DNA of 64,000 bases from an uncultured Thermoplasmatales archaeon (GTDB lineage: Archaea > Thermoplasmatota > E2 > DHVEG-1): positions 5,028 to 69,027 of the forward strand of contig CAYFVP010000055.1 in NCBI GenBank assembly GCA_964346655.1. The letters are read 5' to 3'. Below the pieces are notes generated by a model. It saw only the letters and a program-made list of their open reading frames with translations, was not told the origin of the DNA and made no database searches. Below are positions 3,253 to 60,101 of the stretch, one piece after another. Each line of letters starts with the position of its first letter. Positions within the stretch are counted from its first letter, which is position 1. The position numbers were made by a program, and so were the translations under genes.

Positions 3253-4646
3253 TGGTAGATATAGGTGGAACTCGTATTCCAATGCGAGAGCAGCCGGTTC
3301 AAGATCGGATAAAAAATTTTCACTCCGTGCCGTTCGGCTACAACAAGGAAGAGGTGGTAGAAGAGGCACAGAGATGTATGATGTGTAAGCATGCCCCGTG
3401 TGAGATTAGCTGCCCAGTCCATCTGAAGATCAAGGCTATGATAAGAAAGATTGCCGAACGCAATTTTAAGGAAGCGTTTCTAATTGCTAAGCAGGATAAT
3501 CCAATCCCTGCAATCACAGGACGGGTTTGTCCGCAGGAAGATCAGTGCGAAGGTGTTTGTCCATTGGCAGAGACAAAAAACGGCATAAACATTGGTAAGT
3601 TGGAAGCATTCATAGCCGATTGGGCCATGGAACAAGGGATTACCGAGAAATTTCACATCAAGAATAGAGCAGAAAAGGTTGCAGTAATAGGTTCTGGACC
3701 TGCAGGCATTAGTTGTGCCGTGGACCTCCGTAAATTCGGTTATCAGGTAAAGATATTCGAGGCACTTCACAAAGCAGGCGGAGTACTCCAATACGGCATC
3801 CCAGCTTTTCGTTTGCCTAAGGATATTGTGGACTATGAGTTATCGTATCTAAAGGAAATAGGAGTAGATATACAGCTTAATAATATAATAGGACAAAACA
3901 TAAAGTTTAGTGAATTGCGTGATAACTTTGATGCAATTTTCATTGGTACAGGTGCAGGTGCCCCCCTGTTTGTAGGTATGGATGGAGAGAAACTCAATGG
4001 TGTTTATTCGGCCAACGAGTTTCTCATACGGGTAAATCTGATGAAAGCCTATAATTTCCCTAAACATGATACACCTATCGTTTGCGGAGATGAAGTGGGT
4101 GTTATCGGGGCAGGAAACGTTGCAATGGATGCTGCCAGATGCGCCCTTAGACTTGGTGCAAAGAATGTGTATATTTTATATAGAAGAACGAAACGAGAAT
4201 CACCAGCTAGGGATGAAGAATTACAACACGCACTTGAAGAGGGAATAATTTTCAAGGAATTAATTGCACCAACAAGGGTTTTGGGCAACAAAGAGGGTTG
4301 GGTGATAGGGATAAAACTGGCTAAAATGAAGCTTGGTGAACCTGATAAAAGCGGCCGCCCCAGACCCATAAAGATCGAGAATAGTGAGTTTACCATGAAA
4401 TTAGATACAGTTATAGAGGCTCTAGGATCCAGACCAAACAGGCTCTTTCTGGATAGAACACCTGAATTGGAAAGAAACAAATGGGGTGTGTTGGTAGTCG
4501 ACAAGGATCTTAATACGAATATAGGAGGAGTCTCTGCGGGTGGTGATGCGATAAGTGGTGGTGCTACCGTAATTCTCGCACTTGGAGAAGGAAGAGCAGC
4601 AGCAAAATCTATCCATAAATACTTATCAAAGGGGGATGATAAATGA
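3252..4646 (+). CDS. NfnB/SudA/GltD-like NAD(P)H-dependent FeS flavoprotein (glutamate synthase small-subunit family)
   Basis: N-terminal 4Fe-4S cysteines, two Rossmann GxGxxG/A motifs (VAVIGSGPAG, VGVIGAGNVA). Confidence 0.7.
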   Translation: MVDIGGTRIPMREQPVQDRIKNFHSVPFGYNKEEVVEEAQRCMMCKHAPCEISCPVHLKIKAMIRKIAERNFKEAFLIAKQDNPIPAITGRVCPQEDQCEGVCPLAETKNGINIGKLEAFIADWAMEQGITEKFHIKNRAEKVAVIGSGPAGISCAVDLRKFGYQVKIFEALHKAGGVLQYGIPAFRLPKDIVDYELSYLKEIGVDIQLNNIIGQNIKFSELRDNFDAIFIGTGAGAPLFVGMDGEKLNGVYSANEFLIRVNLMKAYNFPKHDTPIVCGDEVGVIGAGNVAMDAARCALRLGAKNVYILYRRTKRESPARDEELQHALEEGIIFKELIAPTRVLGNKEGWVIGIKLAKMKLGEPDKSGRPRPIKIENSEFTMKLDTVIEALGSRPNRLFLDRTPELERNKWGVLVVDKDLNTNIGGVSAGGDAISGGATVILALGEGRAAAKSIHKYLSKGDDK

Positions 4647-9565: not shown

Positions 9566-10726
9566 ATGGAATACAATTTTGAGGACAGTGATCCTGCAAA
9601 ACGGAAATTTTGGCAGGGAAATATAGCAACAGCTGAAGGTGCTATTGATGCTGGTTGCCGTTTCTTTGCAGGTTATCCAATTACTCCTTCATCTGAGATT
9701 TTACATCATCTTTCTAATAGATTGCCTCAAATTGGCGGTGTATGTGTTCAAATGGAAGATGAAATCGCATCTCTGGGTGCTGTTATTGGAGCTAGTTGGG
9801 CCGGAGTAAAAGCAATGACTGCAACATCTGGTCCTGGTTTTTCATTGATGCAGGAAAACATTGGTTATGCTGTTATGACAGAGACACCTTGTGTGATTGT
9901 TGATGTGATGCGTGTCGGACCGAGCACAGGACAGGCAACTCTAGCTAGTCAGGGAGATGTATATCAAGCACGGTATGGATCGCATTGTGCAGATTATGAA
10001 ATTATCACAGTGGTTCCAAGTTCTGTAAAAGAAAGCTATGAGCTAATTATACAAGCTTTTAATCTTGCTGAGCAATATCGTACACCAGTTATTTTTCTTT
10101 CTGATGGACATTTATCACGCATGAGTGAAACATTTGAAATACAAGAGAAACAGCTTATTATAAATAGAAAAAAACCAACACATAAAGGCGAATCTATTTT
10201 TGGGTCTATTTATGACAGCGAGCTTGTTCCACCTATGCCTTCTTTAGGCGAAGGATATAATGTTTTGGTCACAGGTAGCACGCATGATATTAGGGGATTT
10301 AGAGACACTTTAAATGGAGAAATCCATAGAAAACTAATGCATCGTCTTGTCAAAAAAATAATTCATAATAGAGAGAAAATCATTAAAATCGAGGAAAATA
10401 AACCTGAAGACACAATAATTGGAATTATTAGTTATGGATCTGTTTCAAGAGCTGTCTGGGAGATGCAAGAATTAGCTGAAAAGGAGAATATAAAGCTGGC
10501 TCACTTAAGGCTAATTACTCTCTGGCCTTTCCCAGATGAAAAAGTAAAATCATTTTTAAGCGGACTAAAACATGTGATCGTCCCTGAGCAAAATTCTGGT
10601 TTAATTGTTAGAGAAATTGAGAGATGTACGAATGGAAATACAGATGTTCATTCATTATCAAAAATTGGTGGAGGAGAACCCATTACCCCTAGTGAATTAT
10701 TGGATTTAGTAGTGAGTTTATCATGA
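9566..10726 (+). CDS. korA: 2-oxoacid:ferredoxin oxidoreductase alpha subunit
   Basis: family-typical blocks GYPITPSSEI, TSGPGFSLM and VMRVGPSTG. Confidence 0.8.
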   Translation: MEYNFEDSDPAKRKFWQGNIATAEGAIDAGCRFFAGYPITPSSEILHHLSNRLPQIGGVCVQMEDEIASLGAVIGASWAGVKAMTATSGPGFSLMQENIGYAVMTETPCVIVDVMRVGPSTGQATLASQGDVYQARYGSHCADYEIITVVPSSVKESYELIIQAFNLAEQYRTPVIFLSDGHLSRMSETFEIQEKQLIINRKKPTHKGESIFGSIYDSELVPPMPSLGEGYNVLVTGSTHDIRGFRDTLNGEIHRKLMHRLVKKIIHNREKIIKIEENKPEDTIIGIISYGSVSRAVWEMQELAEKENIKLAHLRLITLWPFPDEKVKSFLSGLKHVIVPEQNSGLIVREIERCTNGNTDVHSLSKIGGGEPITPSELLDLVVSLS

Positions 10727-43997: not shown

Positions 43998-44132
43998 AGA
44001 AATATTTTCTTTAAATAAACTTTAATATTTTTTCAAGTAATATGGGTCAGCTATTGTTATTTTTAAAAGTTATAAGGATAAAAACTTAATACCTATTAAG
44101 AGATTATGGATTTGTATTCTGGGGAGACATAT

Positions 44133-47100
44133 ATGAAGAAAAAAATAATTGGGATTTTTATTATATTGTTAATGATCTGCAGTGTTCTTGCAAGTGCTTC
44201 TGTAAATATTAACATAGAAGCAAATATGTTAGGTGAAAAAGAAAATATTATAAAAGAAACTATCTCTGTTGGAGCTTATCAAATAGAAAGCACTGAGCAA
44301 GGCGTAAAAATTTGTGTTAATAATTTTGGTCGTTTATTGATACCTGGTAAACCTAATTTACCATCAAAGATATTTTCATTTGCTATTCCACCTGGTTCTG
44401 AGTTTGTTGATATCAACTATAAAATATTGGAACGCGAAATTCTTCCAGGTAATTATTATGTTCAACCTACTACTTTACCACGGGTAATAGGTCAGGAAAA
44501 ACCTGAAGTTTATATGCAAGAACAAAAAGTATATGAGGACAATTACAACAAGGTCTATTATAGCAAAGAACCGTATCCTTCTTCTGCTGTTGAATTTGTA
44601 AGGACTGCAGGTTATAGAAATTTTAATCTTGTTGATGTTAGAGTTAATCCTTTTTCATATAATCCACTATCTGGAATATTAGAATTTTTTTCAAATATTG
44701 ATATACAAATAACATATAAATTTCCTGATGGTTATCCAGATAATAATTTAATGATTGACGATAACATAAATGTCAATAAAATTGCAGAAAAAATCATTTT
44801 TAATTATGATCAAGCGAAAAACTGGTATAAAACCAGTTTAAGTGGAAGAGAATCTTATGATTTGGTAATAATTACAACCAGTACATTAACTTCAAAAGTT
44901 ACAGATTTAGTAGATTGGGAAGAAGAAAAGGGAAAAAGTGTAAAAGTTGTTACTACTTCTTGGATTAGTTCCAACTATGATGGGTATGACTTAGCAGAAA
45001 AGATGAGAAACTTTCTTAGAGATAAATATCCTTCAAATAAATGGGGTATTGAAGATGTTTTAATTGTAGGTGATTATGATGATGTTCCAATGCGACGTAC
45101 TGCCCAGGATACAGGTTATGGAAGACCTGAGACTGACTATTATTATGCAGAGCTTTCCCTTCCTGATAGTCAATCTTGGGATGCAGATGGTGATCATCAA
45201 TATGGTGAGGATTCAGATCCTATTGATTTTTATACCGAGGTAAATGTTGGAAGGATTCCCTGGAGTAGTACTTCAACTGTTGAAGATATTTGCGAAAAAT
45301 CTGTTGATTATGAACAGAATAATGATGTATCTTTTAAGAAAAATATTCTCCTTTTAGGTGCCTATTTTTGGCCAGATACTGACAATGCAGTATTGATGGA
45401 GGAAAAGGTTGATCAAGAATGGATGGTTGATTGGACTATGACTCGAATTTATGAACAAGGTCATTCCTCTTATCCATCTGATTACGACCTTACTTATTCA
45501 AATGTTGAATCAGTATGGTCATCAGGTAAATATGCTTTTGTGAACTGGGCAGGTCATGGCTCTCCTACTGGCTGTTATATTTACTATTCATCAGGACCTT
45601 TTGTTGATACACAAACATGTAATTCTTTAAATGATAACTATCCTGCTATTATCTTTGCTGATGCTTGCAGTAATTCAGATACAGACCATCTCAACCTTGG
45701 TCAGTCTATGTTAAGGAATGGTGCTGTTGGATTTGTAGGCGCAACAAAGGTTGCTTATGGTATGCCTGGCTGGAATAACCCATATGATGGCTCAAGTCAA
45801 TCAATGGATTATTTCTTCACGACATGTGTAACATCTGGTGAATATTCACAGGGTCAGGCTCATCAATGGGCATTACTTGAGATGTATACAAATGGACTTT
45901 GGTATTATAATAAATATGAAACATTTGAATGGGGAGCTTTATGGGGGCATCCTAATCTAGCTATGGAACCACCTCTCTTAAAAATTAAGCTACAAGATGA
46001 ATTACCTAAGTTGATAGAACCAGGAGTCTCAACATCCATTTCTGTTGAAATTGAAGAAAATACAGATAACTATATTCCTGGATCAGGTAAGCTTTATTAC
46101 AGATATGACAGTGCAACATTTATTGAATCACCTTTAGAGCATGTTAATGGTGAGCTATATGAGGCTACATTACCACCAGCATATTGTGGCGATATACCTG
46201 AGTATTATTTTAGCGCAGAAGGAGAAAAGGCTGGAACAATATTCAAACCATATGGTGCTCCAGACAATTTATATTCTGCACTTGTAGGAGAATTTATCAC
46301 AGTGTTTTCTGATGATTTTGAAATAGATAAAGGTTGGACTGTTGAAAATGATCCATATTTAACGATTGGTGCTTGGGAACGAGGAGTGCCAATTGGCGGT
46401 GGTGACCGAGGCGATCCGCCAGCAGACTATGATGGCTCAGGACAATGTTATCTAACATGTAATCAAGATGGAGACTCTGATATTGATGATGGAATTACTT
46501 GGCTTATATCTCCAACTTTTGATCTTAGTTATGGTTTAGATCATATTATTGAATATGCCTTATGGTATACCAATAACTATGGGAATGATCCAAATAATGA
46601 TTTATTTAACGTGTATGTTTCAAATGATGATGGCTCAAACTGGGTTTTAGCAGAAACCATTGGACCTGCATCTTCTTCAGGTTGGAAAGAACATAGTTTT
46701 GTAGTTAGCGATTATGTTACACCCAATAATGAGGTAAAGGTTCGCTTTGAAGCATCAGACTTAAATGCAGGATCAGTTGTTGAAGCAGGAATTGATGCAT
46801 TCCATATTTATATCCACGAATGTAATAATCCTCCAATGCCTCAGCTAAGTTGTAGTGGAAATCTTAATTGGAATAGGGTGCAACCAGAAGAAACGGTTAC
46901 AGGTTCTTTTACAGTTGAAAACTCAGGTGATCCTGATTCACTTTTGAGTTGGAATATTGAAATTCCCACAAGTTGGGGCTCATGGATTTTCAATCCTGAG
47001 TTTGGTATCGACTTAAAGCCTCAAGATGGACCAGTTACGATAAATGTTGAAGTTGTGGCTCCATCTGATCCACAAACAGAATTCAGAGAAAAAATTAAAA

Positions 47101-47258
47101 TATACAATCCGGAAGATGTTGGAGATTACTGTGAAATAGACGTTGTTTTAAATACTCCAAGAAACAGAGCCATTAATATGCCACTTTCTATTTTTAAAAA
47201 TAGAAATTTACAGATATTTACGTTTCTTCAGATGTTATTACATCTTTTAATTAAATAA
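44133..47258 (+). CDS. secreted clan-CD cysteine peptidase (C25 gingipain-like) with C-terminal beta-sandwich domains
   Basis: signal peptide; His-Gly ([10 protein letters not shown]) and Ala-Cys ([10 protein letters not shown]) catalytic blocks each preceded by a hydrophobic strand; GGGGAG SD at 44120. Confidence 0.6.
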
Positions 47259-47398
47259 AGACTTTAAGCTTTTTTTATTTTAATATTTCAAAATCCATAA
47301 TAAAATAATCTTTTATTATATATTACAAATTTTATTAAAATTAGACATACTAATTTATATACCTAAAATCTATTTATTATGTATTAAATACGGCGGAG

Positions 47399-48169
47399 GT
47401 GGAAAATTTGAAAAAAACAAGTTTTAGGAAAAAAGGCTTAGTAGTATCTATAATTATTTTATTTATTGGAGTTGGTATTTACCCTGCTATTGCGATATTC
47501 CCTGACAAATCTTCTGATATTTTCTTGGATAAAAATATCAAGCAAGGAAAAAATACAGAACCAAAAGAATATTTATTTCAAACTATTATTGATATAGCAA
47601 ACAATCCTGAAGTAAAGGATTTATTTGAACAAACAAAAAATAATGGTGAATGTATCAGTTGGGATTGTGATTTTAAAAGTGTTTTTCAAAAATTATTATT
47701 TAGAAAACCCATACTTATCATTTCTTTGATATTTTCTATACCTAGTATAACACATTCTTATCTTAATAATAATTTTAACAGAGGTTGTGAAATAACAAAA
47801 ATACTTGGAGAAGAAAAAGTAAGTAATATAGTTGAATCAACTGAGATTACTAATCCTGAATTTTTCATTGAATTAAATGACATCATTACAAATGATGAAG
47901 AATTGTCTAATAGGATTTCAATTCTATCGGAGATGAATGAAGAGTTAAAACCTGATGCACCTTTCCAGAATGATTCATCTATCTGTGTACTTTTATTTAT
48001 ACTTTGGTTTGTATATATTATTAGAACTGGGATATCAAAAATAATAGGTAATTTCTTCGAAGGCTCAATTTTATCAAAATTATTTGATTTGCTATGGTAT
48101 AAAAATTGGCGTATAGCAGGTATCATTGCATTAGTATTTGATTTAATGGATTGTGATCATATTATCTAA
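47399..48169 (+). CDS. secreted/membrane hypothetical protein with the IIILFIGVG leader
   Basis: N-terminal KKGLVVSIIILFIGVGIYPAIA; C-terminal TM segment. Confidence 0.4.
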   Translation: MENLKKTSFRKKGLVVSIIILFIGVGIYPAIAIFPDKSSDIFLDKNIKQGKNTEPKEYLFQTIIDIANNPEVKDLFEQTKNNGECISWDCDFKSVFQKLLFRKPILIISLIFSIPSITHSYLNNNFNRGCEITKILGEEKVSNIVESTEITNPEFFIELNDIITNDEELSNRISILSEMNEELKPDAPFQNDSSICVLLFILWFVYIIRTGISKIIGNFFEGSILSKLFDLLWYKNWRIAGIIALVFDLMDCDHII

Positions 48170-48394
48170 ATAATTATTACATAAAAATTATCAAGAGCTC
48201 AATTAAAAAAATCTATTTTTTTTTAAATTTTATATATTTAATTTTTTTTAAAACAAATTTTTTTAACAACATTTTTGTTTGGTTTTTTCCGAACATAGTA
48301 GTATAATATATAAACTATAAAAATGCTTCTTATTCGAATCTTGATACATAGGACGACATGAAATCACATAGAAATTCCATTGGTAGTAGAAATC

Positions 48395-48535
48395 ATGAAA
48401 AAGAAATATAAAATTATAATTGGTATTGTAATATTATTGGTTGGCATTATTGCATTATTTTTTGATAATGCAGTTACTGCTACATTATGCGTTCCAATTG
48501 GAGTTTCTCTTATTATATTTTCAAAAATAATATAA
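48395..48535 (+). CDS. unannotated 46-aa membrane mini-protein
   Basis: MKKKYKIIIGIVILLVGIIALFF...; a single TM. Confidence 0.25.
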   Translation: MKKKYKIIIGIVILLVGIIALFFDNAVTATLCVPIGVSLIIFSKII

Positions 48536-48721
48536 TTTTTGTTGAAAAAATTAAAAAAATATTTTAAAAAAGTTTATTTTCTAGTTATTTTTAATAAATA
48601 GTAATTATATTTATTTGAAGATAAAATTTAATTTTTAATAATAAGATTTATATATGATATATAGAGGTAAAAGTTATATACACTAATTGTCATATGATAA
48701 AATATAAGAGGGGGATAGAAA

Positions 48722-49567
48722 ATGAAAAAAGAATTATCCAAAAGGGCGCTGGTTATTGGAATTATAGTAATATTTATTGGTGTTTCTGTTTCACCAGTAA
48801 TTCAAGGATCAAATCTTAAAACAGATTCATATAAAATAAGGGTAAATAATGAAAATCAAGATACTTCTTTTATAACATTTCATACTTTTGATAAATCTGG
48901 TTCAAAAAAGTGTGGTGTTGAGCTATCTTATAATGCTGTTGAAGAAATCTCTTCCATGTTCGAAGATTTAGAACATAAAATTATTAATGAACCTTTTAGT
49001 TCGGAAACTAAAGCTTTAAAATCTGATTTTGTTGATCTATTAGAGTCGTATGACTTGTTTCCTGCTGGGATGTCCAAAAATAAGGTGCTTTCTTTGTTGA
49101 ATCCGTCCTGGCTTAGTTGGTTTGAAAAAAGACCATATTTTAAAACAAGTAAAGCCTTAAAAACAGGTTTTTTCAACATCTTTAATGTATTGGGAAATCT
49201 TCAAAGGTTTTTTGTTTCTTCTGATATCATTGAGTCGTTGGTAAGATATCCTGAGCCATCTTCTGCTGCCGCTGATGCATTTTTATGTAATATAATTAGT
49301 TGGGGTGTTGGGGTACCTATCCCTTTGTTTATGCTTCCTAGACCTCGTGGTATAGCTTTATGGTATGCTCCAAAAGAATCCCTAACTAATGTAGGTCAGC
49401 TAGTGATTGCAAGTGGATTTCAAGCAAAAGGCACTCAATACGGTATTGCTTTAGGTTTTGTTGGTCTTGGCCTTAGTTTTGCTGTTTTAGGTGAATTTCT
49501 ATATGGTATCATAGGTTATTCAGTTTATGTATATATTAATGCAGATGAAATTACATCGATTTCTTAA
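48722..49567 (+). CDS. secreted/membrane hypothetical protein with the IIVIFIGVSVSP leader
   Basis: N-terminal KRALVIGIIVIFIGVSVSPVIQG; AGGGGGA SD. Confidence 0.45.
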   Translation: MKKELSKRALVIGIIVIFIGVSVSPVIQGSNLKTDSYKIRVNNENQDTSFITFHTFDKSGSKKCGVELSYNAVEEISSMFEDLEHKIINEPFSSETKALKSDFVDLLESYDLFPAGMSKNKVLSLLNPSWLSWFEKRPYFKTSKALKTGFFNIFNVLGNLQRFFVSSDIIESLVRYPEPSSAAADAFLCNIISWGVGVPIPLFMLPRPRGIALWYAPKESLTNVGQLVIASGFQAKGTQYGIALGFVGLGLSFAVLGEFLYGIIGYSVYVYINADEITSIS

Positions 49568-49833
49568 TCCAATTAAAAATCCCTAAATTCTAGTTAATCT
49601 ATTTATAACATTGTAAATATTTCAACTTATCTAAATTCTTTTTTAGAATTCTTTTTTTTATAGTAAAATGTAAAGATTTTATCTTTATAAAAAAGCTTTG
49701 ATTTTTTACTTAATTAAGGGAATCAAAATTATTAGTAAGAAAACAGAACAATTTTAACAGATTCAAAATTATGCTATTAATAATGGTATATATTTAAATA
49801 CTTAAACAAATATAGATAATTATTGGGGGTAAT

Positions 49834-51402
49834 ATGCAAGGAAAAATAGGTTTTAGGAGAAGATTTTTTGTAATATTTGCAGTTTTAATATTAGCATGTG
49901 CTACTATTATTCCGAATGTGGTTGGTCAATCTTATGTTGATTCAAAAAAAGCTGAAGAAAAAGAAATTAAAAATTTGGCTAGTTTTAGATCACTTTTTAG
50001 AAACTTATTAATTAAAACACTTTCTAATAGATTTCAACCAGTAGGAATATTAAAAAGTACTCTTAACACAAATTGTGATGGTATTGAACTATCAACAGAG
50101 ATAATATTTGGTAGAACAAAAGAAATAGATATTGATAATAATTTAGATACTGGTGTTAATGGTAAAGACATTAAAGTTAATTATTTTATTTTACCTTATA
50201 TTAAATTTGACTTTGGTATTGGATTAGGATTAACATTTACGTTTTATATTGAGCGTATTGGTGCAGAAATAAAAGATAGCGATTTCAGTGCAAGTTTAGA
50301 AATTGCTCAGAAGACTATTGTTTTAGGATTCAAATCCCCTGCTGAAATTGGAAATGAAATCCCTTTTTCCACTCGAGTATCATTTAATTTATATTTTTAT
50401 TTGCTTAAGAGAACTCGTGGATTTGGTTTGGCATTGACTCCTGAATATTCTAGTGGAAATGATAATAAAAAGATTGAACTTTTTGCAGAATATTCTGGTG
50501 AAGAACCAAAACGGGAATTCTCGTTATTATTTGACCCTGCTATACAAACTGAAATAGGTTTTGAATCAACAAAGATAAAGGGCGTTTGGAACTATAATTT
50601 CTATCGTAAATCCTCAGATGATTGTCAACTTACATCTAATTTTAAATCAATAGAAAACGGTGCGTCAAAAGATACAACAATTACAATAGATAAATTGCCG
50701 AAAGAATTAAAATTTTCGCTAGGATTAACACCTCTTTCTCAAGGAGGTGGCCAGTTTTTATATGAAAGTAGTGATAAATACGATATTGAATTACAAATTA
50801 TAAGCAGTGAACTAGGAATCTGTGGTTATTCATATCTAAAAAATACTCCAAAAAGAATTTTTGCAGAATGGATTCCTACTTTCCTTAATGGAGAATACCA
50901 TATAGATATAGATTCAAATGGGACAGATTTTGGTATTAAGGATACATTAGTTAATCCATATATTAATCTTGAAGTAAAAAGCCTTAAAACAATTGAGGTA
51001 GATGCATATTGGAATCTTACAAATCCAGGGGATTTTACAGTTTACAAAGATACAGATATTCATGTTGACTTAGATTTTTCAATTGGAGAATGGGTTGCAA
51101 ACCTTGATGTTGAACCAATTGCAAAAAACATTTCAACATCCTGGTTTATAGATATATCCGGTTATTTGACAATTGATACAAATGGAGAGCCATTTAGTAT
51201 TATGGATTTAACTGTTAAAGGACCTTTAATAGGTCTTCGTATTATTGGAGAATCGTTTAAATCTGAGGATGCAAAAATTTCTTGGACTTTATGGCCACCT
51301 CAGGAATGGGATTTAACAATAACAGGCTGGGTTATTGCATCTGAAATAAGTTCCATTGATATATACTTAATAGATAGTTGGTATCATCTCTGGCCGTGGT
51401 AA
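49834..51402 (+). CDS. secreted hypothetical protein (522 aa)
   Basis: signal peptide RRRFFVIFAVLILACATIIPNVVGQ; GGGGG SD. Confidence 0.45.
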   Translation: MQGKIGFRRRFFVIFAVLILACATIIPNVVGQSYVDSKKAEEKEIKNLASFRSLFRNLLIKTLSNRFQPVGILKSTLNTNCDGIELSTEIIFGRTKEIDIDNNLDTGVNGKDIKVNYFILPYIKFDFGIGLGLTFTFYIERIGAEIKDSDFSASLEIAQKTIVLGFKSPAEIGNEIPFSTRVSFNLYFYLLKRTRGFGLALTPEYSSGNDNKKIELFAEYSGEEPKREFSLLFDPAIQTEIGFESTKIKGVWNYNFYRKSSDDCQLTSNFKSIENGASKDTTITIDKLPKELKFSLGLTPLSQGGGQFLYESSDKYDIELQIISSELGICGYSYLKNTPKRIFAEWIPTFLNGEYHIDIDSNGTDFGIKDTLVNPYINLEVKSLKTIEVDAYWNLTNPGDFTVYKDTDIHVDLDFSIGEWVANLDVEPIAKNISTSWFIDISGYLTIDTNGEPFSIMDLTVKGPLIGLRIIGESFKSEDAKISWTLWPPQEWDLTITGWVIASEISSIDIYLIDSWYHLWPW

Positions 51403-51634
51403 TCTCTTTTTTATTTTGAACCAATATACCCTAAATTCATAGGATTAAAAATCAAACACATCAACAGAAGGCATAATTTAAATGAGATAGACTTTTTACT
51501 CAACGTTCTAACCTCCTCAATAATTTTTACAGATCTAAAATATTTGAAACTTCAAGATGATTATCTCTGGGTTAATCTTTAATCTTGTAAATAAAAAGTG
51601 AAAAATCTATTTTGTAATAATAATTTTAGATTTA

Positions 51635-52147
51635 TTAAAAAGGTTCATCCCAACAATTAAACTCATAGCCAATTACCCAAGTTAATAACCAAATCTCAGC
51701 AAAAGGAACAGCAAGTAAAGTAAGTATAAAAGCCTTTAAAGGTTCTTCTCCCAATAAATTATTGTATACATCTTTCAAATAATACAAAGTGTCTTTAAAT
51801 GAAAAATAAATATTTTTTAAAATATCACAAATTGGTCTATCGTTATTTAAATCTTTTAATGCAGAAATTCTAATAGATAATTTTTCCCATTTCTCTAATA
51901 AATCAGGATTGTTTATATAGAAAAACTTTAATATCTTTGTATAAACCTCTAATCTATTAAACATCCTATCCAATTTAACAAGATAACTGTTGCTTATTTC
52001 TTGACAATCAAAATCCTCTTCACTTTTATTATTAACTATAAATAATTCAGTTTCAATAGATATAGCAGAAGAATAACTAACTCCAATAAATAATATAATG
52101 ATACCCAGAGTAAGGGTTTTACTTAATAGATTTTGTTTTATATACAT
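51635..52147 (-). CDS. secreted/membrane hypothetical protein with the IIILFIGVSYSS leader
   Basis: N-terminal SKTLTLGIIILFIGVSYSSAISIE. Confidence 0.4.
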   Translation of the reverse strand: MYIKQNLLSKTLTLGIIILFIGVSYSSAISIETELFIVNNKSEEDFDCQEISNSYLVKLDRMFNRLEVYTKILKFFYINNPDLLEKWEKLSIRISALKDLNNDRPICDILKNIYFSFKDTLYYLKDVYNNLLGEEPLKAFILTLLAVPFAEIWLLTWVIGYEFNCWDEPF

Positions 52148-52449
52148 ACCTCCTCTTATCTTAGATATTTACAATTATTTGTAAATGTTTAAATTTATGC
52201 ATGAATTTTTTGATAAAATACCGATATTTAATATTTAAAATCCTAGTTTTGCACTTAAAATAAATAAAAAATTCGATTATAAATTAAAAATTGAAAAGTA
52301 TAGTTAAATCAGCTTATCAAGTAATTAAATTTTTTATATTATGAAGTATTAAAAGTTAAATATAGAATTATTACAAAATACGAATTATCAATAAAAAATC
52401 AGGTTGGTTTTATATTGATTTCTTATTGACCCTTTTTTTGAAAATGTTT

Positions 52450-52581
52450 TTAGATGGTTTCTAAGTCTTCTTCTGTGAAAAATTTTAATTCTGTCCCATC
52501 TGGAAGAATTGCAATTTTTACTTTTTCTCCTGTTTTTGGATCAACTTCATCTCGAAATATTGTTCCTTTAGGAAAATCCAT
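52450..52581 (-). CDS. unannotated 43-aa hypothetical protein
   Basis: strong GAGGGG SD 6 nt upstream of the ATG. Confidence 0.25.
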   Translation of the reverse strand: MDFPKGTIFRDEVDPKTGEKVKIAILPDGTELKFFTEEDLETI

Positions 52582-52719
52582 TTTTTCCCCTCACAAAATA
52601 CTATAATACATATTTGTTTTAAAAACTATACGACGATATCTATATATACATATAAATATACATTTGATAACCTTTTTACTATTGGTTTTGCATTTTTATT
52701 TAATACATAATTATGCAGA

Positions 52720-52741
52720 TGCATATGCAATTGCATATGCA
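52720..52741. repeat. 22-bp perfect palindrome TGCATATGCAATTGCATATGCA
   Basis: read directly; sits about 50 nt upstream of the wHTH regulator gene. Confidence 0.8.
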
Positions 52742-52792
52742 GGTATTTATACATAGAAGAATAATAATATAAATAGGGACTCACATCTACAT

Positions 52793-53140
52793 ATGGACGG
52801 GATGCAGGAAGATAATCAATTAGAGTCTTCTATCAATATCAGAAGACCCTTGGTTATTAGAGCTTTAAGGCGAAGCAATGTAAGAAAGAAAATAGCAGAA
52901 TATTTATTTGAAATTAGTCCTAGTAGTAGCTATACCTCTGAAATTGCTTATAATGTTAAAACCACCCCAACAAATGTAATTGGTGCAATTAGAGGAATGG
53001 GATCAAGGTATAAGGTTGATGAATCACTTTTAAATTTAAAAATTATTGAAGAAAAAAGCACTGGAAAAAATATTAAATTATATTGTTTAACTCCTTTTGG
53101 AAGAGAAATAATTTCATCTTTATTAAAAAAAGATATATAA
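52793..53140 (+). CDS. small winged-helix (MarR/ArsR-like) transcriptional regulator
   Basis: helix-turn-helix-like stretch VRKKIAEYLFEISPSSSYTSEIAYNV followed by a wing. Confidence 0.35.
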   Translation: MDGMQEDNQLESSINIRRPLVIRALRRSNVRKKIAEYLFEISPSSSYTSEIAYNVKTTPTNVIGAIRGMGSRYKVDESLLNLKIIEEKSTGKNIKLYCLTPFGREIISSLLKKDI

Positions 53141-53194
53141 TTTTTTTAATATTATTTAAAAAACATTACAAAAAAACATAAAAAACATGTATTA

Positions 53195-53344
53195 CTCATC
53201 TTGAAATTGCTCTCTCATTTCTTGTCTTTCTGCCAATATTTCCTCACTGTAATATTTGCTTCTACAATTTGGGCATGTAATTGGGGATTCCTCTGAACTT
53301 CTCACCCATCTATGTCCACAAAATGGACAATTTTCTTTTTTCAA
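53195..53344 (-). CDS. unannotated 49-aa zinc-ribbon protein (TTG start)
   Basis: CPFC...17 aa...CPNC; GGGGG SD before the TTG. Confidence 0.3.
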
Positions 53345-53566
53345 TTTGAAGCCCCCGTGTAAAGAATATAATATAGGCAGTTTAAAAATATATCTGTTAT
53401 ATTAATTTTTTTACATTTTTTTATTTGTTTTAAAATTTTGAAATTTTGAATTTTTAAAGAGTCAATCTAATTAAAGAATCTAAATATAAAAGATAAATAT
53501 CATTGAATTAAATATGAATTTTGATATATTTATTTTTTCAAAGATATTTTTTATTTATTTGATAGT

Positions 53567-53704
53567 TTAATTAGAACCGTTTTTCCACTTATATTCTAAT
53601 TTTTTCAGGTGAGGGGGAACCTTTTTACCATTCTTTTTTCTAAAACCTTCTACTGGTTGCCATTTTATTCCATACTCTCCGATTTTACTATATTTATGTT
53701 TCAT
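53567..53704 (-). CDS. unannotated 45-aa basic protein
   Basis: AGGAGG SD 7 nt upstream of the ATG; Lys-rich. Confidence 0.3.
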   Translation of the reverse strand: MKHKYSKIGEYGIKWQPVEGFRKKNGKKVPPHLKKLEYKWKNGSN

Positions 53705-53821
53705 TTTTTTCCTCCTAACTTCTTCTCATGCTATTTAATAACACGCTTACCTTTTGAATTTATTTATATATAAAGCTAATGTGGAAAAATGTCAAAATGA
53801 AAAAAAATTTAGGAATAAAAT

Positions 53822-54643
53822 CTATAGTTCAGACAGTTTATTCCTTGCAATTTTTACATAAGATTCATCTATTTCAAAGCCAATAAAATCCAACCTTAAT
53901 CTTTTACATGCAATAGCAGTTGAACCAATCCCCATGAATGGATCTAATACAAGTTTTACTTTTTCAACACCATGCAATTTTAAACATGTCTCAGGTAATC
54001 TTATAGGAAAAACAGAGGGATGCGGGCGGGATACTTGAATTGTTTCATAAGGAATAAACCACGTATTTCCACGAGGACGTAAATCATCAATTGCTTTTTT
54101 CCATCGACCAATGTTACTTTTATCTTGGTAACAAACGCCTATCGCCATTTTATTTAATTTTACATCTCCACTTAATGTAAAATGAAAAACATACTCATGA
54201 CAGCCACTCAAATATCTTTCACTATTTACTGGTTGGTAATGACCAACAGAAATATCATTATTTATATTTGTATAATTTCCAACATCTTGTTTTGAAATAG
54301 AAATTGATTTTATCCAATGAATTACATTTTGTAAAATAAAATATTTTCTAAAACGCTGAGCAATATCAAATGGAATCCAAAGGTCAGTTGGTTTCCCGCC
54401 AACATTTAAAAAAAATGAAGAATTGTCATTCATTACATCTTTACATTCTTTTGCCAAATGTTCCAACCAATTAAGATACTCTTCTCTTGGTTTTTCATCA
54501 TAATAATTACTATATTTTTTACCAATATTATAGGGTGGTGAAGTAACAATTACATCTGAAAATAAAGACTGCTCTTTCATAAGGCCAATTCCTTTTATGC
54601 AGTCCATTAAATATATATTATTTAACTCAAGTTGAAGATACAT
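53822..54643 (-). CDS. beta-class DNA amino-methyltransferase (N6-adenine or N4-cytosine), orphan
   Basis: motif [13 protein letters not shown] followed later by motif [11 protein letters not shown] (beta order). Confidence 0.75.
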
Positions 54644-54659
54644 ATTATCTAAAATTTTT

Positions 54660-56117
54660 TTATTTTTTGTTTTTTTCAATATTGATATCTTCAGTAATAT
54701 TGGCAAGACGTTTTGCAAGTTTTATATAATGATTAATATCTGTTTTTGCATTTATTACTAACTTTGCACTATCTGGAGAACCACCTCCATGCATGCATCC
54801 CGGAACTCCTGCACCCAAGGTAAGCCACTCTACTAACCTTGCTATTTTTGCTCGGGTTTCCCCTGAACAGTTTGCCTGTAAATATTTCTTTAATAACTTT
54901 CCATATTTTGGATCATTAATATCTTTACATGAAGGTAAACAACCAGTTTCAGCAATTCCTCCTGCAATATCCTGAGTAATTCTTTTTGTTTCATAGGGAA
55001 GTTTTGCCACATGAACCTTATTAATGTTTGAAAGAAGTTGATCTGGAATCCAGACACCAGAGGGATGTTTTTTCCCAAGAACGCCTGCTGCAATTCCCAT
55101 ACCAAAGGTTGTTTCATTGTTAATTATCATTTGAGTAATTTTTTCTCTAAACACTTTTTCAGAAAGACCATTTGCTCGAGCCATAAGAACGGCTGCACCA
55201 ACCATTACATCTCCTTGACCTGCTACGCAACCGCCAATTGCAGCTCTATATGGAGCAATAAAATTCATTATAGCTTTTGTTGAATAATCAAATTCACCAC
55301 ACATAAAAACTCTTTCATTTGGAATAAATACATCTTCAAACAATAGATATGCTTGAGTTATACCACCAATATCAACAGGGATATCAAAACCATTTTCTAG
55401 TTCTCTATTATCACTTGGTCTTCTGGTTTCCACGATTGTTAGGTTTTTAATATCTCGAGGAATAACAAAAGAAATTGCATAATCTTTATCAACTTCTTTA
55501 TATCCAGATCCCGGCATTATAAAAATCTCATTTGCTGCAGCAACCCCACAGATCATGACCTTTGCACCGCGGACAATAATTCCATTATCTTTTTTTTCAA
55601 TAACATGTAAACACAAATCAGGATCTTTTTGATTGGACGGAGATTTAGTTCGATTTCCCTTTGGATCAGTAAGTGCACCCGAAATAGTAATATCGCGATC
55701 TTGGGCAGATTTCAGCCAATTATGAATTCTTTTATGATACACAGTTCCAAGATCTTTATCCATATCAAAGGTTGTTGCCCACATTGAATTAAATGCATTA
55801 AACCCTGCACATCTACCTCCAGTACAAGTACCAGTAAGATTAAACATCAATCTTTTCATATGCAGATTTGCAATCATATCTTGAGCACTAGTAATAATAG
55901 AAAGATATCTTGATACCTGTTTACCACTTATACTTGATTTAGTAGTTAGAATATCTTTATACTCATCTTTAAAAGATGCATCAAAAATCTGGGCATGTCC
56001 TGCAACTGTTCTCTTAGTTGCAGGGTGAATTGTTACATCTTTTATAAGTTCACCAAATTTGTAAATATTTGGTTTCATTTTTCGAAGGCTTTCTTTGTAA
56101 TCCTTACCTGTTTTCAT
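54660..56117 (-). CDS. abfD: 4-hydroxybutyryl-CoA dehydratase / vinylacetyl-CoA delta-isomerase
   Basis: near-colinear blocks with Clostridium aminobutyricum AbfD ([67 protein letters not shown]). Confidence 0.85.
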
Positions 56118-56321
56118 ATTTATTTTTTCCCTTTCACTTTAAATTCCCATTTTGGAAAAGTTAACTTGATTTAATTTTTTTGATTTACTAGTGTTTTCTC
56201 ATTATTATTTTATATTTTTTTAAGATGTCAATCAAGTCCTATTATTTAACTTTTTAATTTATGATAATTTTTTTTCTTGTTTTTTTATCAAATTATATAG
56301 GGTTGTAAGCCTAAAAAATTG

Positions 56322-57254
56322 ATGAGTCAATCTTTTGAAAATTTATTCTATAAGCAGCAATTAATCCCTGATTCATTGGTGGATGGTGGGGATGGTGTTC
56401 AATGTGTGGGCGGAGCCACCATTGAACAGGATTCCTTCTCAGATTCTTATGATAAAAGTTCATTATGTTCTCCTTTAGGAACTTTTGTAAATTTAGAATA
56501 TATTTTTGAAACGTATCCTGTTGTTAAAAGAATTTTTGATAAGATCTCTAGGTGTGGTATTATTTATCCAGAGTTTCTAAATATTAAAACCTTGGATACA
56601 ATTAATATTAAGGCTTTTTGTGATAATCGTGTGTGTAAAAATCCTGAATGTCAGAAACATCGTCTTTTAAAGTTTATGAAGGAGCATATGTATCAGATAT
56701 TTGATATTCAGAAAGATATGAGGAAGCCTAAGGCTTGGATTTTTACTGTTCCTCATAAAAAATATCCTATTGATAGGAAATATTGTATGAATAAACTAAA
56801 ATTTCTTTTTTATCTCTTATCGAAGGATAAACATTCAAGTTTTGGATCTAGTTCTTTATTTTCAGTTCATATGGAGATTAAGTCTAGTGTTAATAGTTGG
56901 TTTTTACATTTTCATATTGTTAGTGGTGGTATTACTAATCTTAGGTTTATTAAAAAAAAGTGGAAATATATGATTAGATATCAAGTGGCAATTAGTCCTA
57001 AGCAGCTTTCTCGTTATGTTTCAAAATATGCTTCTAAAACACCTTTTTTTCCAAATAAATTGGCTTTCTTTGAGTATGCTCAAGCTGTTTATAAACTTCA
57101 GATGCATCGTTTTTCAACGAAGATAAAAAAATCTAAAATTGTATCTGATTGGGTTCTTATTGGTATTAGTGGATATAGTAAATCCAATGATTTATTTAGT
57201 GATATGAGTCAGTATTTGGATAGATATGTTGATGATTTTGGTTATGGGAGTTAA
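56322..57254 (+). CDS. HUH-endonuclease rolling-circle Rep (superfamily I, phiX174 gpA-like two-Tyr motif) with a Cys/His zinc finger
   Basis: motif I AWIFTVP, motif II LHFHIVS, motif III YVSKYASK (compare phiX174 YVAKYVNK), CDNRVCKNPECQKH. Confidence 0.55.
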   Translation: MSQSFENLFYKQQLIPDSLVDGGDGVQCVGGATIEQDSFSDSYDKSSLCSPLGTFVNLEYIFETYPVVKRIFDKISRCGIIYPEFLNIKTLDTINIKAFCDNRVCKNPECQKHRLLKFMKEHMYQIFDIQKDMRKPKAWIFTVPHKKYPIDRKYCMNKLKFLFYLLSKDKHSSFGSSSLFSVHMEIKSSVNSWFLHFHIVSGGITNLRFIKKKWKYMIRYQVAISPKQLSRYVSKYASKTPFFPNKLAFFEYAQAVYKLQMHRFSTKIKKSKIVSDWVLIGISGYSKSNDLFSDMSQYLDRYVDDFGYGS

Positions 57255-57343
57255 TTAAGAATCAAAATTGTTCTCCTATTATTCTAATTTAGGTTGTTAA
57301 ATATTTCCTCGTTATATAATCAAATGATTCATTCTTTGAAATT

Positions 57344-59287
57344 TTAAAAGAGTTTCAGTACCCTTATGTTTTTTATTATAGTTTTATCATATATTCCATT
57401 GCATATCAGCTTAATATTATGAAATCCAAATTTTACTTCATCCCATGAATAGGTGTATAATGAAAATCTATCTGCTCGTTTAAATTTCTCATCAATGTAA
57501 AACTCTACTTCGGCTAGATTTTCAGATCCATTGACCTCAATATTTATTTTACCTATTATTATCGGGAAGATAAACGGAATTAATTTTTTATTATTCAAAT
57601 ATATTCCAGGTTTTGGTTTTTCGACACTGATGTTCAATAAAACAGGTTGCATTACAAAATCAATTTGTAAGGTTTCACCATCTTGAATTGGATATTTTTC
57701 AGTTCCTGAAGGATAGTGTCCATCTGCAGTAGCATGAAGTCTTACTTCTCCAGCGGCAACATTCATCTCATAATATCCTGAATTATCTGTTTCTGTGTGA
57801 TTTCCTCCGCAATAATCTCCATTTTCATCATATGAAGAAGCTGAAACATAGGCACCTTTAATTTCTGGATGAGTAGTAGTATCGCTTTTAATATAACCTT
57901 TTACAACTGAATTTTTAGGAGGATATGGGTCTAATGAGATATTCAGCAATATGGTTTCATCTTCTCCTATCATGTAGGTATCAGATCTAAAACTATAATA
58001 TTCTCCACTTGAAGCAGAAACATAAATTGAGATATTCCCAGGTGCAATATTCATTTCGTAAAATCCTAGATTATCTGCCAAAGTATTTTTACTAAAGTGA
58101 TGACCTTGTCCATCAAACCAAATACACCTTATATGAGCCTCTTCTATTGGATCATTTGTATTATTGTCAGTAATATATCCCGTTATTTTTGCTGTTTGGG
58201 GAGGAATTTCATATAGTGTTTGGTCCCAATAATATGTTTCACCTTCATTTATATGATCGTGAAGGCCATAAGAGGAAGTATGGTGATATGTAAATGCATC
58301 AATCCAAAAATCAGATTCTGCAACCATTATTTCATAGTATCCATCTGCATCTGTAAAAGTGAAATTCCAATCAAAATGAGGAATTTCATAATTATCTGAC
58401 ATTACTTCTATTAAGACATTTTCTATTGGTTCACCTGATTGTTCTTCTGTTACATATCCACATATCATCGCGGAATCTGGATATCTAGGATAAAGGTGGA
58501 TGATAAACTCTGTCGTCTCTCCATCTCCAACTAGTTTTTCTCTTTTATATGTTTCATAATAATCCTCTGCATAAACCCATGGCATTGCCTCTCCTGCAGC
58601 AACGTTTACACTGAAAAAACCATTATCATCAGTAACTGTATATAACCATTCTCCATGATCATTGTTATCACTCCAGGTTATATCAACAACAGCGCCTTCA
58701 ATAGGATCTGCGTTATCAGCATGATATACATATCCATTAACAACAGAATTCTTTGCAGGAGCTCCAGGTGTTAATGTTTTATTTATCCAATTAATCTCCT
58801 CGTCATGTAAATGAAGAATATCACGAAAGCCATAGTAACCTTCAGCACTAACAAAATAAATTACCTCACCATAAAAGATTTTTTCTAAATTTATTTCATA
58901 ATATCCTGTTGAATCAGTAGTTGTTTCATCTCTATCAAAACTTAAATGTTTACCAATTGAAATTATTAAAATAGTTGCATCTTCAATAGGTAAACCGTTA
59001 TTTTCATCTGTGATAAAACCTTTTAGTGTATAATCAAAATAACCTTGATAAAAAATAGGTTCATTGGAATTTTCATAAAAAAGTGTGTCTTTTATTTTTA
59101 AATCATAAAATTTACATACTTCTTCTATAGGTCGTAAGTTTTTTTGCTCTTCAATATTAAGATATTTTGTTTCAGTTATGATGTGATTAATAGATATTGG
59201 ATTATTCTTTACCAGCCCCATTATTGTTGGAGATAAACTAGTCCCAATAAACAATAATATAATCATATAAGCAATTTTTTTCTTCAT
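57344..59287 (-). CDS. secreted surface protein with about six CarboxypepD_reg-like repeats and the IILLFIGTSLSP leader
   Basis: recurring G(Y/F)YE(M/I)N(V/I)AAGE blocks roughly every 95 aa; N-terminal signal peptide. Confidence 0.55.
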   Translation of the reverse strand: MKKKIAYMIILLFIGTSLSPTIMGLVKNNPISINHIITETKYLNIEEQKNLRPIEEVCKFYDLKIKDTLFYENSNEPIFYQGYFDYTLKGFITDENNGLPIEDATILIISIGKHLSFDRDETTTDSTGYYEINLEKIFYGEVIYFVSAEGYYGFRDILHLHDEEINWINKTLTPGAPAKNSVVNGYVYHADNADPIEGAVVDITWSDNNDHGEWLYTVTDDNGFFSVNVAAGEAMPWVYAEDYYETYKREKLVGDGETTEFIIHLYPRYPDSAMICGYVTEEQSGEPIENVLIEVMSDNYEIPHFDWNFTFTDADGYYEIMVAESDFWIDAFTYHHTSSYGLHDHINEGETYYWDQTLYEIPPQTAKITGYITDNNTNDPIEEAHIRCIWFDGQGHHFSKNTLADNLGFYEMNIAPGNISIYVSASSGEYYSFRSDTYMIGEDETILLNISLDPYPPKNSVVKGYIKSDTTTHPEIKGAYVSASSYDENGDYCGGNHTETDNSGYYEMNVAAGEVRLHATADGHYPSGTEKYPIQDGETLQIDFVMQPVLLNISVEKPKPGIYLNNKKLIPFIFPIIIGKINIEVNGSENLAEVEFYIDEKFKRADRFSLYTYSWDEVKFGFHNIKLICNGIYDKTIIKNIRVLKLF

Positions 59288-59561
59288 ATTGTTCCTCCCT
59301 TTTCTTATTATATATTAAAATTGCAATATATAAGATTTATTAAGATATTTATAGTCAAATCTTGAAAAAAATAAAATAATTTACTATTTTGCACAAAAAT
59401 AGAACAATGATATTCATTTATTGAACATTATCTTAGAGATTATTTTAAACACAAATAAATATAATTTTAAAAAAATATTATATTCAAAACTCTTTACTTG
59501 TTCATATTGCCAGTAAATATGCACTTTATATGATGAGGATAAACCTAATTAAACTGAATGA

Positions 59562-60101
59562 TTATATTGTAAATTCCCATTCGCACCACAAATTATTAGG
59601 ATGCATATCAGGAGGACAAACATTACATCTAACTTTTATATCAGGATTAAACTCTTTGGCAAATGCCTTTAAAAAACCATATCTAACAGGTTTACATCCA
59701 AACTCAACAAGGCCTTTTTTAATCCTTGTATTTTGAACACGACATTTAACATTTCTAATTATTGCCCTGTTAGTTTCAACAATTATTTCTTTATCTTCAA
59801 GATCAAGAGCCCAACCAGAATAACTAAGTGCTTTTATTAGAGAAGGAATATCATTTTTTTTAATTTCGAATAATTCTTTAATTCTACGAGATTCAATCTT
59901 TCCCATTACTTCCCATACTTTTTTATCAATTTCGGTTGCAGCATTAGTTCCAAATTTTTCTTCAATTCCAAGATAATAAAGCCCATCAACTGTCCACAGA
60001 TTCCTTAAATGCATAAAGATAAAATCAGCAAGTTTATCACTAGGAATTTCTTCTATTAACTTTTTATCCTTAACTCGACTAATAATTAAACACCTCATCA
60101 A
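59562..60101 (-). CDS. hypothetical Cys-containing protein downstream of etfA
   Basis: ORF only; C-terminal CNVCPP...WCEWEF. Confidence 0.25.
   Translation of the reverse strand: MMRCLIISRVKDKKLIEEIPSDKLADFIFMHLRNLWTVDGLYYLGIEEKFGTNAATEIDKKVWEVMGKIESRRIKELFEIKKNDIPSLIKALSYSGWALDLEDKEIIVETNRAIIRNVKCRVQNTRIKKGLVEFGCKPVRYGFLKAFAKEFNPDIKVRCNVCPPDMHPNNLWCEWEFTI

Follow-up and report, generated by a model that had tools for sequence, protein, structure and literature searches.

Cryptic plasmids of 1.7–3.5 kb whose main gene encodes a replication initiator (Rep) of the HUH class are known from haloarchaea (pGRB1/pHSB type) and from Thermococcales (pGT5, pTN1, and pTP2). Sediment Thermoplasmatota of the Thermoprofundales/MBG-D type are abundant and uncultured archaea. 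Full-text literature searches found neither rolling-circle plasmids described in Thermoplasmatota nor the Rep family treated here. Among transposons, IS91 TnpA has two essential tyrosines, and IS91-family elements make no target duplication (PMC5714925). Here, we analyzed a 64-kb stretch of DNA (the window; 64,000 nucleotides) from an uncultured Thermoplasmatales archaeon (GenBank assembly GCA_964346655.1, contig CAYFVP010000055.1), in which a Rep-like protein is encoded near position 56322. In the analysis, the window was assigned to contig JABAOF010009932.1 of assembly GCA_012974965.1. The original prediction, made from the sequence, described this protein as a phiX174 gpA-like two-tyrosine HUH Rep with a zinc finger and suggested an integrated rolling-circle plasmid, a provirus, or an IS91-like remnant. 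We consider that this is probably the initiator Rep of a small plasmid of the rolling-circle type that has become integrated in a Thermoplasmatota chromosome. The segment that carries it is absent from relatives and is bounded by a direct repeat that the empty site contains only once.

The insertion and its empty site

The Rep gene lies within an insertion of 3,418 bp (56152–59569; GC 0.288) between the genes for a DUF6125 protein and AbfD. The only genes inside are that of the Rep, on the plus strand, and a convergent gene for a secreted protein of 647 amino acids. A 12-nt direct repeat, TAAATTCCCATT, is present exactly twice in the window, on the plus strand at the two borders of the insertion. 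The left copy (56140–56151) forms an attL-like junction, and its reverse complement encodes the ...E-W-E-F remnant of the DUF6125 C terminus. The right copy (59570–59581) forms an attR-like junction inside the 3′ end of the DUF6125 gene. The integrated junctions are CTTTCACTT-TAAATTCCCATT-TTGGAAAAG on the left and GATTATATTG-TAAATTCCCATT-CGCACCAC on the right, and the predicted circular and empty-site junctions are GATTATATTG-TAAATTCCCATT-TTGGAAAAG and CTTTCACTT-TAAATTCCCATT-CGCACCAC, respectively. The probability that two 60-nt intervals of the window have a 12-mer in common by chance is 0.00065. The 12-mer was overlooked at the settings of the repeat finder (seed 12, minimum 16) and was recognized via alignment to the empty site.

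The empty site was found in two relatives (the P0160 contig and L055/L056), whose AbfD proteins are 87% and 83% identical to that of the window. In L055/L056, it contains one copy of the repeat, TAAATTCCCAGT. The gene order in the relatives is acyl-CoA dehydrogenase, AMP-ligase, electron transfer flavoprotein (ETF)-beta, ETF-alpha, DUF6125, AbfD, and N6/N4 methyltransferase, and the stop of the DUF6125 gene abuts or overlaps the start of AbfD. The window keeps this order on the minus strand, with approximately 3.4 kb between DUF6125 and AbfD. The insertion interrupts a fatty-acid/4-hydroxybutyrate gene run that is co-directional in the relatives, and AbfD is parted by 3.4 kb from the gene it adjoins there. 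Its transcription must now start from within the left arm of the element. The C terminus of DUF6125 was altered by the insertion from ...WEF-KVKGKK (stop) to ...WEF-TI (stop), and the old tail is readable at the left junction (56111–56139). Syntenic orthologs without mobile-element hallmarks, which the original prediction had named as the outcome that would speak against it, were not encountered; the relatives have an empty site, and the close homologs are nonsyntenic. Integration in the chromosome was correctly anticipated, but the element is more than the open reading frame (ORF) and its flanks: it is a 3.42-kb insertion with the 647-residue protein gene and the 12-nt repeats.

The noncoding parts of the insertion are AT-rich, as had been noted for the flanks of the Rep gene. 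The left arm (56152–56318, plus strand; GC 0.18) is a candidate promoter or origin region. A TATA-like sequence, AAATTATATA, is found at 56290–56299, approximately 25 nt ahead of the Rep ATG, and a block at 56227–56257 is ~75–80% identical (manual count from the alignment) to the same place upstream of the Rep of L002, an integrated relative described below. An AT-rich spacer (57255–57343; GC 0.21) separates the convergent 3′ ends of the two genes. The cargo gene (57344–59287, minus strand) encodes the 647-residue secreted protein, which has CarboxypepD_reg-type repeats according to precomputed Pfam annotation and a signal peptide similar to the signal peptides of the window's other secreted proteins. 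This gene lies inside the repeat-bounded insertion and is missing from the empty sites. The right noncoding arm spans 59288–59569 (GC 0.19). In the reconstructed circle, the two arms are joined via the 12-nt repeat to give a divergent intergenic region of 461 nt.

A 1,023-bp Logan contig (L001; run ERR2564001) is 100% identical to 56273–57295, which corresponds to the Rep with 46 and 41 nt of flanking sequence. This contig was considered as a marker of the element boundary and was rejected, as its ends differ from the true insertion borders.

Features of the Rep protein

The Rep ORF occupies 56319–57254 of the plus strand and can start from TTG at 56319 (311 amino acids) or ATG at 56322 (310 amino acids). 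The start used by gene callers is the latter, and an identical protein of 310 residues is on record as P0001. The protein consists of a disordered N-terminal tail, a zinc-binding module, and an HUH/Y2 nuclease domain, and a helicase domain is absent. The zinc-binding module (56553–56660) comprises C79 and the cluster C101-x4-C106-x4-C111-x2-H114 (56619–56660). Motif I, KAWIFTVP (56730–56753), is located on the strand of residues 138–143 in the AlphaFold2 model. Motif II, the HUH motif LHFHIVS with H197 and H199 (56904–56924), is on the strand of residues 193–202. Motif III, Y-x3-Y in the form YVSKYASK (57015–57038), contains the putative catalytic tyrosines, Y233 and Y237, on the helix of residues 227–239; all of these segments are on the plus strand. 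The model has a predicted local distance difference test score (pLDDT) of 84.8, with a core above 90 and disorder in residues 1–43. The placement of HUH on a β-strand and of the two tyrosines on an α-helix in the model is a hallmark of the HUH superfamily.

Conservation was analyzed in an alignment of 65 homologs spanning ~30–86% identity (an earlier version had 31 sequences). C79, C101, C106, C111, H114, H197, H199, Y233, K236, Y237, and K240 are invariant, and P137, K138, W140, and F142 in the motif I region are almost invariant. Motif I of the family lines up with the FITLT motif of Rep_1-like relatives. As judged from the alignment, the motifs are not chance occurrences. The ORF and all the motifs named in the original prediction are real and lie where it had placed them. 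The likeness of motif III to phiX174 was also borne out, since gpA reads GFYVAKYVNKKSD at residues 341–353, including YVAKYVNK. The Rep gene has been under purifying selection, with a ratio of nonsynonymous to synonymous substitution rates (dN/dS) of ~0.21 between the window and L002. The invariant residues and the profile matches described below support the assignment to the two-tyrosine HUH Reps and the presence of a zinc-binding module at the N terminus, and the protein is predicted to be a helicase-less rolling-circle initiator.

Sequence and structural relatives of the Rep

An exhaustive profile search of 1.84 billion cluster representatives yielded 100 proteins at E ≤ 0.001. Almost all matches of the first search were nameless, and the named ones were from metagenome-assembled genomes (MAGs) of Thermoplasmata/Thermoplasmatota. 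The best Pfam match of the window Rep was REP_ORF2-G2P (PF23343) with an E value of 0.12 (13.1 bits versus a cut-off of 27.8), and neither Rep_1 (PF01446) nor Zn_Tnp_IS91 (PF14319) was matched. NCBIfam and Protein Data Bank (PDB) sequence searches with the window Rep gave no significant match, and PHROGs gave nothing meaningful. A tblastn search of 72,556 plasmid records (PLSDB) gave no match for the Rep. Across the 65 family members, sub-threshold Pfam matches were found to REP_ORF2-G2P (16/65), Zn_Tnp_IS91 (7/65, best E value of 2.4e-5), and Rep_1 (5/65), and P0072 has a precomputed PF14319 annotation. The family is small, isolated, and without annotation in domain libraries, and by Pfam thresholds the Rep falls outside the Rep_1, REP_ORF2-G2P, and Phage_GPA families.

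The farthest members found by the profile (P0157, P0151, P0156, and P0158) exceed the Pfam cut-offs for Rep_1 and/or REP_ORF2-G2P. In an hhalign comparison, the Rep family matched these members with a probability of 99.7% and an E value of 3.2e-25 over 195 columns, which take in the zinc module and all three motifs. The comparison with phiX174 gpA aligned 22 columns around motif III only, with a probability of 4.3%, and Phage_GPA is outside the 25 most-matched of the 39 Pfam families matched by the 65 members. A Foldseek search of the Rep model against BFVD (predicted viral structures) returned 50 matches at E ≤ 1e-3 (best 6e-8), and those with names are Microvirus replication initiators. The Rep is related by sequence to Rep_1/REP_ORF2-G2P and resembles microvirus gpA in its predicted fold and motif III. 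The description as "phiX gpA-like" accordingly holds for motif III and the fold but not for the whole-protein sequence, which has no significant match to gpA and is nearer to Rep_1/REP_ORF2-G2P. Identity with the archaeal Rep-Arvir was considered and rejected, because Rep-Arvir is Rep_trans-like and not HUH (PMC13107129).

Integrated relatives

Further relatives of the Rep were found in MAG contigs among housekeeping genes. Three integrated relatives (L002, L003, and L004) also lie between direct repeats. L004 has an exact 18-nt repeat at 9009 and 14628, which encloses 5.6 kb between MtrH and MtrA; the Rep is near the left end, and a gene with a Phage_integrase domain (Pfam) is 49 nt from the right repeat. 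L002, whose Rep is 73% identical to that of the window, has a 14-nt repeat at 2559 and 12369 (9.8 kb). Its Rep begins at a distance of 165 nt from the left copy, and the start of a Pfam Phage_integrase gene is found 58 nt from the right copy. In L003, a 12-nt repeat occurs at 3347 and 8272; 147 nt separate its left copy from the Rep, and 16 nt separate its right copy from an integrase-like gene, which shares 28% identity with the integrase of L002. In the window, the distance from the left repeat to the Rep is 167 nt, close to the 165 nt of L002. The estimated probabilities of the flanking repeats arising by chance are 0.013 (L002) and 0.002 (L004). The repeats of the four elements (the window and L002–L004) are unlike in sequence: TAAATTCCCATT, AAGGAAATACTTAT, TGTTAGATGTAT, and TTTAGTGAAAGAAAACAT.

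Rep homologs at 73–86% identity sit beside different neighbors: TATA-binding protein (TBP), Alba, and tRNA-His genes in L002, pyrroloquinoline quinone (PQQ) propellers in the P0002 contig, and a tRNA-Met gene in L006. The L006 copy (5614–6325), 80% identical to the window Rep, is a pseudogene, in which the Y233 codon is a stop and H114 is replaced with Tyr, followed by a frameshift. In a neighbor-joining tree of the Rep, the integrated copies are scattered among clades of circles, with the 1.6-kb circles as the sister group of the window clade.

In three independent chromosomal copies, tRNA genes are found ~200 bp upstream of the Rep, namely, those for tRNA-His (L002, 2460–2533), tRNA-Met (L006, 5360–5434), and tRNA-Tyr (L021, 1414–1504). 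The flanking repeat of L002 is 26 nt outside the tRNA-His gene, and the tRNA is thus not the att site itself. There are no tRNA genes in the window. A tRNA as the att site was rejected on these two grounds. L002 also contains a 65-nt sequence three times (4213–4277, 5221–5285, and 10492–10556; 82–100% identity) upstream of secreted-protein genes, which looks like a shared promoter or leader.

Small circles encoding the Rep

A metagenome scan for the Rep returned 48 loci. In 14 of the contigs, the two ends overlap directly by the length of an assembler k-mer (55, 99, 127, or ~120), a signature of circular assembly, and the resulting circles measure 1,521–2,381 bp. The Reps of the circles are 30–52% identical to the window Rep, and the Rep is their only large ORF, the only one above ~150 amino acids. 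Two more contigs, L013 (3743 bp) and L023 (4996 bp), are concatemeric assemblies of one Rep-bearing unit of 2,269 bp, which is a further circular or tandemly repeated element unseen by the terminal-overlap test. In sample ERZ791558, the coverage of the circular contigs is 173–1601×, versus 4–10× for its other Rep contigs.

The circles of 1575–1674 bp (L008, L010, L012, L017, L018, and L025) have a common conserved layout, which the window is without. The stop of the Rep is followed by GAGGGGGTGA, a tiny acidic ORF, 3–6 iterons (e.g., GTCTTAACA), a basic ORF of ~48 amino acids, a TATA-like box, and a structured element of ~150 nt, and a small ORF (M[AS]FEKT...) comes last before the Rep. The ~150-nt element has two interleaved helices, which are sequence-variable between circles yet complementary (CCACCTGCACGG/CCGTGCAGGTGG in L008 and CTAGCCTAGCC/GGCTAGGCTAG in L012). 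It resembles a pseudoknot and may serve as an origin or as a copy-control RNA. No Rfam match was obtained for the circles or the window, and Pfam searches of the small circle ORFs and the unknown neighbors of the integrated copies were likewise negative. In L010 and L018, both of high coverage, ACG follows a Shine-Dalgarno-like sequence, GGGGGTG, at the position where other members have ATG before S-L-S-S-P, and a canonical in-frame start is absent near the conserved LSSPFRNF Rep start. The Rep of these two circles could be translated from a noncanonical start or by translational coupling to the upstream small ORF.

Proposed mechanism and alternative explanations

Here, we propose a mechanism for the replication and integration of the element. 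The free form would be a circular plasmid of ~3.43 kb that replicates by the rolling-circle mode, with the origin and the promoters in the 461-nt intergenic region that integration has split into the two arms. The Rep would nick the plus strand at the origin and become covalently linked to the 5′ end via Y233 or Y237. The 3′-OH would be extended by a host polymerase, and the second tyrosine would close the displaced strand, as in phiX174 gpA. Integration would occur by recombination of the 12-nt core upstream of the Rep (attP) with the same 12 nt at the 3′ terminus of the DUF6125 gene (attB). Because of the arrangement in L002–L004, the likeliest catalyst would be a tyrosine recombinase like those of the sister elements, either provided in trans or lost afterwards. 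With its ORF and both repeats preserved, the integrated copy is probably intact but silent in replication.

Several observations weigh against this proposal. A tblastn search with the L002 and L004 integrases found none in the window, and for an integrase-less element the integration enzyme is conjecture. The nuclease activity of the Rep family is predicted and biochemically putative. Foldseek returned no PDB match for the Rep model at E ≤ 0.001; the best E value was 0.02, a weak match, although the top weak matches are rich in HUH nucleases (SIRV1 ORF119; circovirus, nanovirus, and geminivirus Reps; adeno-associated virus (AAV) Rep; and Helitron). No significant hairpin was found in the left arm (DNA fold z = −1.09 versus shuffles), and none above shuffles was found in the 57255–57343 spacer (z = +0.32). 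Neither iterons nor stems of at least 9 nt were found in the reconstructed circular junction. The structured element of the 1.6-kb circles is absent from the window arms. A free circle of the 3.4-kb element is not on record. All the contigs of at least 20 kb with the Rep or the cargo protein were reported as the same integrated arrangement, and the one other contig, L001, contains the Rep alone, with its neighbors not visible. The circular junction of the element is also absent from viral contigs. Finally, the comparison genomes are only 83–87% identical in AbfD, and the difference may be a deletion between repeats in those genomes instead of an insertion here.

One candidate for the origin was dropped. 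The sequence AACTTGAT at 56163 is identical to the phiX174 origin core, and its frequency in the window is that of chance (4 found versus 5.3 expected). L024 is the only circle that contains it, and the Rep-proximal arms of L002–L004 lack it. CTTGATA is not conserved in the circles.

The Rep itself may instead have integrated the element, with the HUH enzyme cleaving both its origin and a chromosomal look-alike and exchanging the strands. AAV Rep integrates at AAVS1 by such a Rep-mediated route. This explanation predicts an origin-like sequence duplicated at both junctions and a nick site inside the 12-nt repeat. It would account for an element that has no integrase yet has an intact Y2 HUH enzyme, a class able to cleave and join, and the origin could sit at the repeat, which is found at a fixed distance upstream of the Rep (167 nt in the window, 165 nt in L002, and 147 nt in L003). 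The N-terminal zinc module also resembles that of IS91 transposases. However, related Reps would be expected to have similar nick sites, and the four repeats are dissimilar. A tyrosine-recombinase-type gene lies beside the other repeat in three of the four elements, in the usual attP–int arrangement, and the 12-mer was not found in the circles; we regard Rep-mediated integration as unlikely. In its general form, the idea is that the zinc-finger/Y2 Reps are dual-purpose, replicating the 1.5–2.4-kb circles and inserting them at short chromosomal look-alikes. This extension has a similarly small chance of being correct. If it were true, the family would represent an extant transitional form linking rolling-circle plasmids with IS91/Helitron-type transposons, and the window element would be a Rep-integrated copy whose 12-nt repeat marks the nick site.

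The IS91 resemblance could also be taken further, with the Rep as a Y2 transposase that moved itself and the adjacent cargo by one-ended rolling-circle transposition of the IS91/ISCR type. A zinc-binding N terminus followed by an HUH/two-tyrosine domain is the organization of IS91 TnpA (PMC5714925), and the sub-threshold Zn_Tnp_IS91 matches in the family, the cargo gene beside the Rep, and the lack of terminal inverted repeats are consistent with it. The exact 12-nt flanking repeats nevertheless contrast with IS91, which makes none (PMC5714925). Y2_Tnp (PF04986) is outside the 25 most-matched of the 39 Pfam families matched by the 65 members, and among the distant relatives scanned it has a single sub-threshold match (P0157, E value of 0.027). 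Only one copy is present in 64 kb, no ends are in common with L002 or L006 (one short block is shared with L002), and the relatives are on autonomous circles with conserved small ORFs and regulatory structure or in integrase-bearing elements. Such a transposon is very unlikely. That the Rep is a host gene, i.e., a domesticated HUH nuclease with a cellular role and vertical inheritance, would fit the intact ORF with a TATA-like box upstream, the purifying selection relative to L002 (dN/dS 0.21), and the lack of a detectable origin nearby. It is highly improbable given that the gene is absent from the syntenic site in relatives, that its closest homologs are in unrelated contexts, one of them decaying, and that the family is very sparse (~100 cluster representatives) and mostly on tiny circles. 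We give even less credence to a provirus of a small single-stranded DNA (ssDNA) virus, microvirus-like or pleolipovirus-like, with the Rep as the viral initiator. In favor of a provirus, the Rep is structurally best matched by Microviridae replication initiators, its motif III is that of phiX174 gpA, and the secreted or surface protein of the second gene could in principle be a virion protein. However, no capsid-like gene is present in the 3.4-kb insertion or any circle, and the CarboxypepD_reg repeats of the 647-residue protein are ordinary and its signal peptide is of the host type. Neither 2.9 million IMG/VR viral contigs nor, by tblastn, the GenBank phage records contain a relative of the Rep, and the PHROGs result points the same way. 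Of the three origins offered in the original prediction, the integrated plasmid fits; an IS91 remnant is disfavored by the direct repeats, and a provirus by the lack of a capsid and of any relative in viral contigs.

Host genes around the insertion

The host gene at the left flank is AbfD, a 4-hydroxybutyryl-CoA dehydratase of the HpaB family (54660–56117, minus strand; Pfam HpaB_N and HpaB). It has 2463 homologs at E ≤ 1e-100, and among the best 120 listed, those with a name belong to Thermoplasmatota/Thermoplasmatales. The right flank is the DUF6125 gene (59562–60101, minus strand), the last gene of the AMP-ligase/ETF/DUF6125 run. The N6/N4 methyltransferase (53822–54640, minus strand) is also a host gene. 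Its position is as the original prediction had it, but the hint of mobility drawn from it does not hold; the gene is syntenic beside AbfD in relatives without the insertion and is therefore no evidence for mobility. For annotation, this means that the methyltransferase flagged as "orphan" is unrelated to the element. In L055/L056 (9498–10964), a gene for an MjaV-type restriction endonuclease comes after the methyltransferase, and the window has small ORFs there instead. The methyltransferase looks to have been orphaned by the loss of its restriction partner, not by mobility.

Another stretch of the window, 44100–53800, has a GC of 0.25–0.30 and genes for secreted or membrane proteins without Pfam matches, which have a common signal-peptide sequence, ..IILFIGVS.. 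It splits the acyl-CoA metabolism cluster into parts at 39–44 kb and 54.6–63.5 kb. One of its genes (51635–52147) is homologous to the gene adjoining the Rep in L002. This stretch may be a second island.

Comparison with known systems

The integration event is precisely delimited by attL, attR, and the empty site. The minimal replicons, from 1.5 kb, are candidate vectors for archaea without genetic tools, and the circles offer a compact system for finding the minimal requirements of a rolling-circle replicon. The combination of a zinc module with a two-tyrosine nuclease bears on the kinship of rolling-circle plasmids, ssDNA phages, and rolling-circle transposons.

The Rep family shares with Rep_1 (PF01446; pC194/pUB110-type) and REP_ORF2-G2P (PF23343) the motif order, with an FxTLT-like motif I, HUH, and Y-x2-K-Y-x2-K, and it is likewise a helicase-less nuclease on very small plasmids. 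It is distinguished from them by the invariant N-terminal Cys4/His module and the two tyrosines; the Rep of pC194 uses one Tyr plus a Glu. Compared with phiX174 gpA and Microviridae, the Y-x3-Y on one helix (YVSKYASK versus YVAKYVNK) is alike and the predicted fold is the closest, whereas the window Rep has a zinc module, an archaeal host, and no microvirus capsid or virion genes. The zinc N terminus with an HUH/two-tyrosine domain and the chromosomal insertion with an adjacent cargo gene are reminiscent of IS91/ISCR, but the window insertion has 12-nt flanking repeats, and the relatives of its Rep are autonomous circles or integrase-bearing elements. Unlike the small archaeal rolling-circle plasmids, the family has no sequence match in plasmid records, and its circles are as small as 1,521 bp. 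In their short att repeats and adjacent tyrosine recombinase, L002–L004 resemble integrative archaeal plasmids. Both the class of enzyme and the notion of an integrated plasmid are well known; what is new is a family unseen by domain libraries, its IS91-like zinc module joined to a Rep_1/gpA-like Y2 nuclease, its hosts, and its very small circles.

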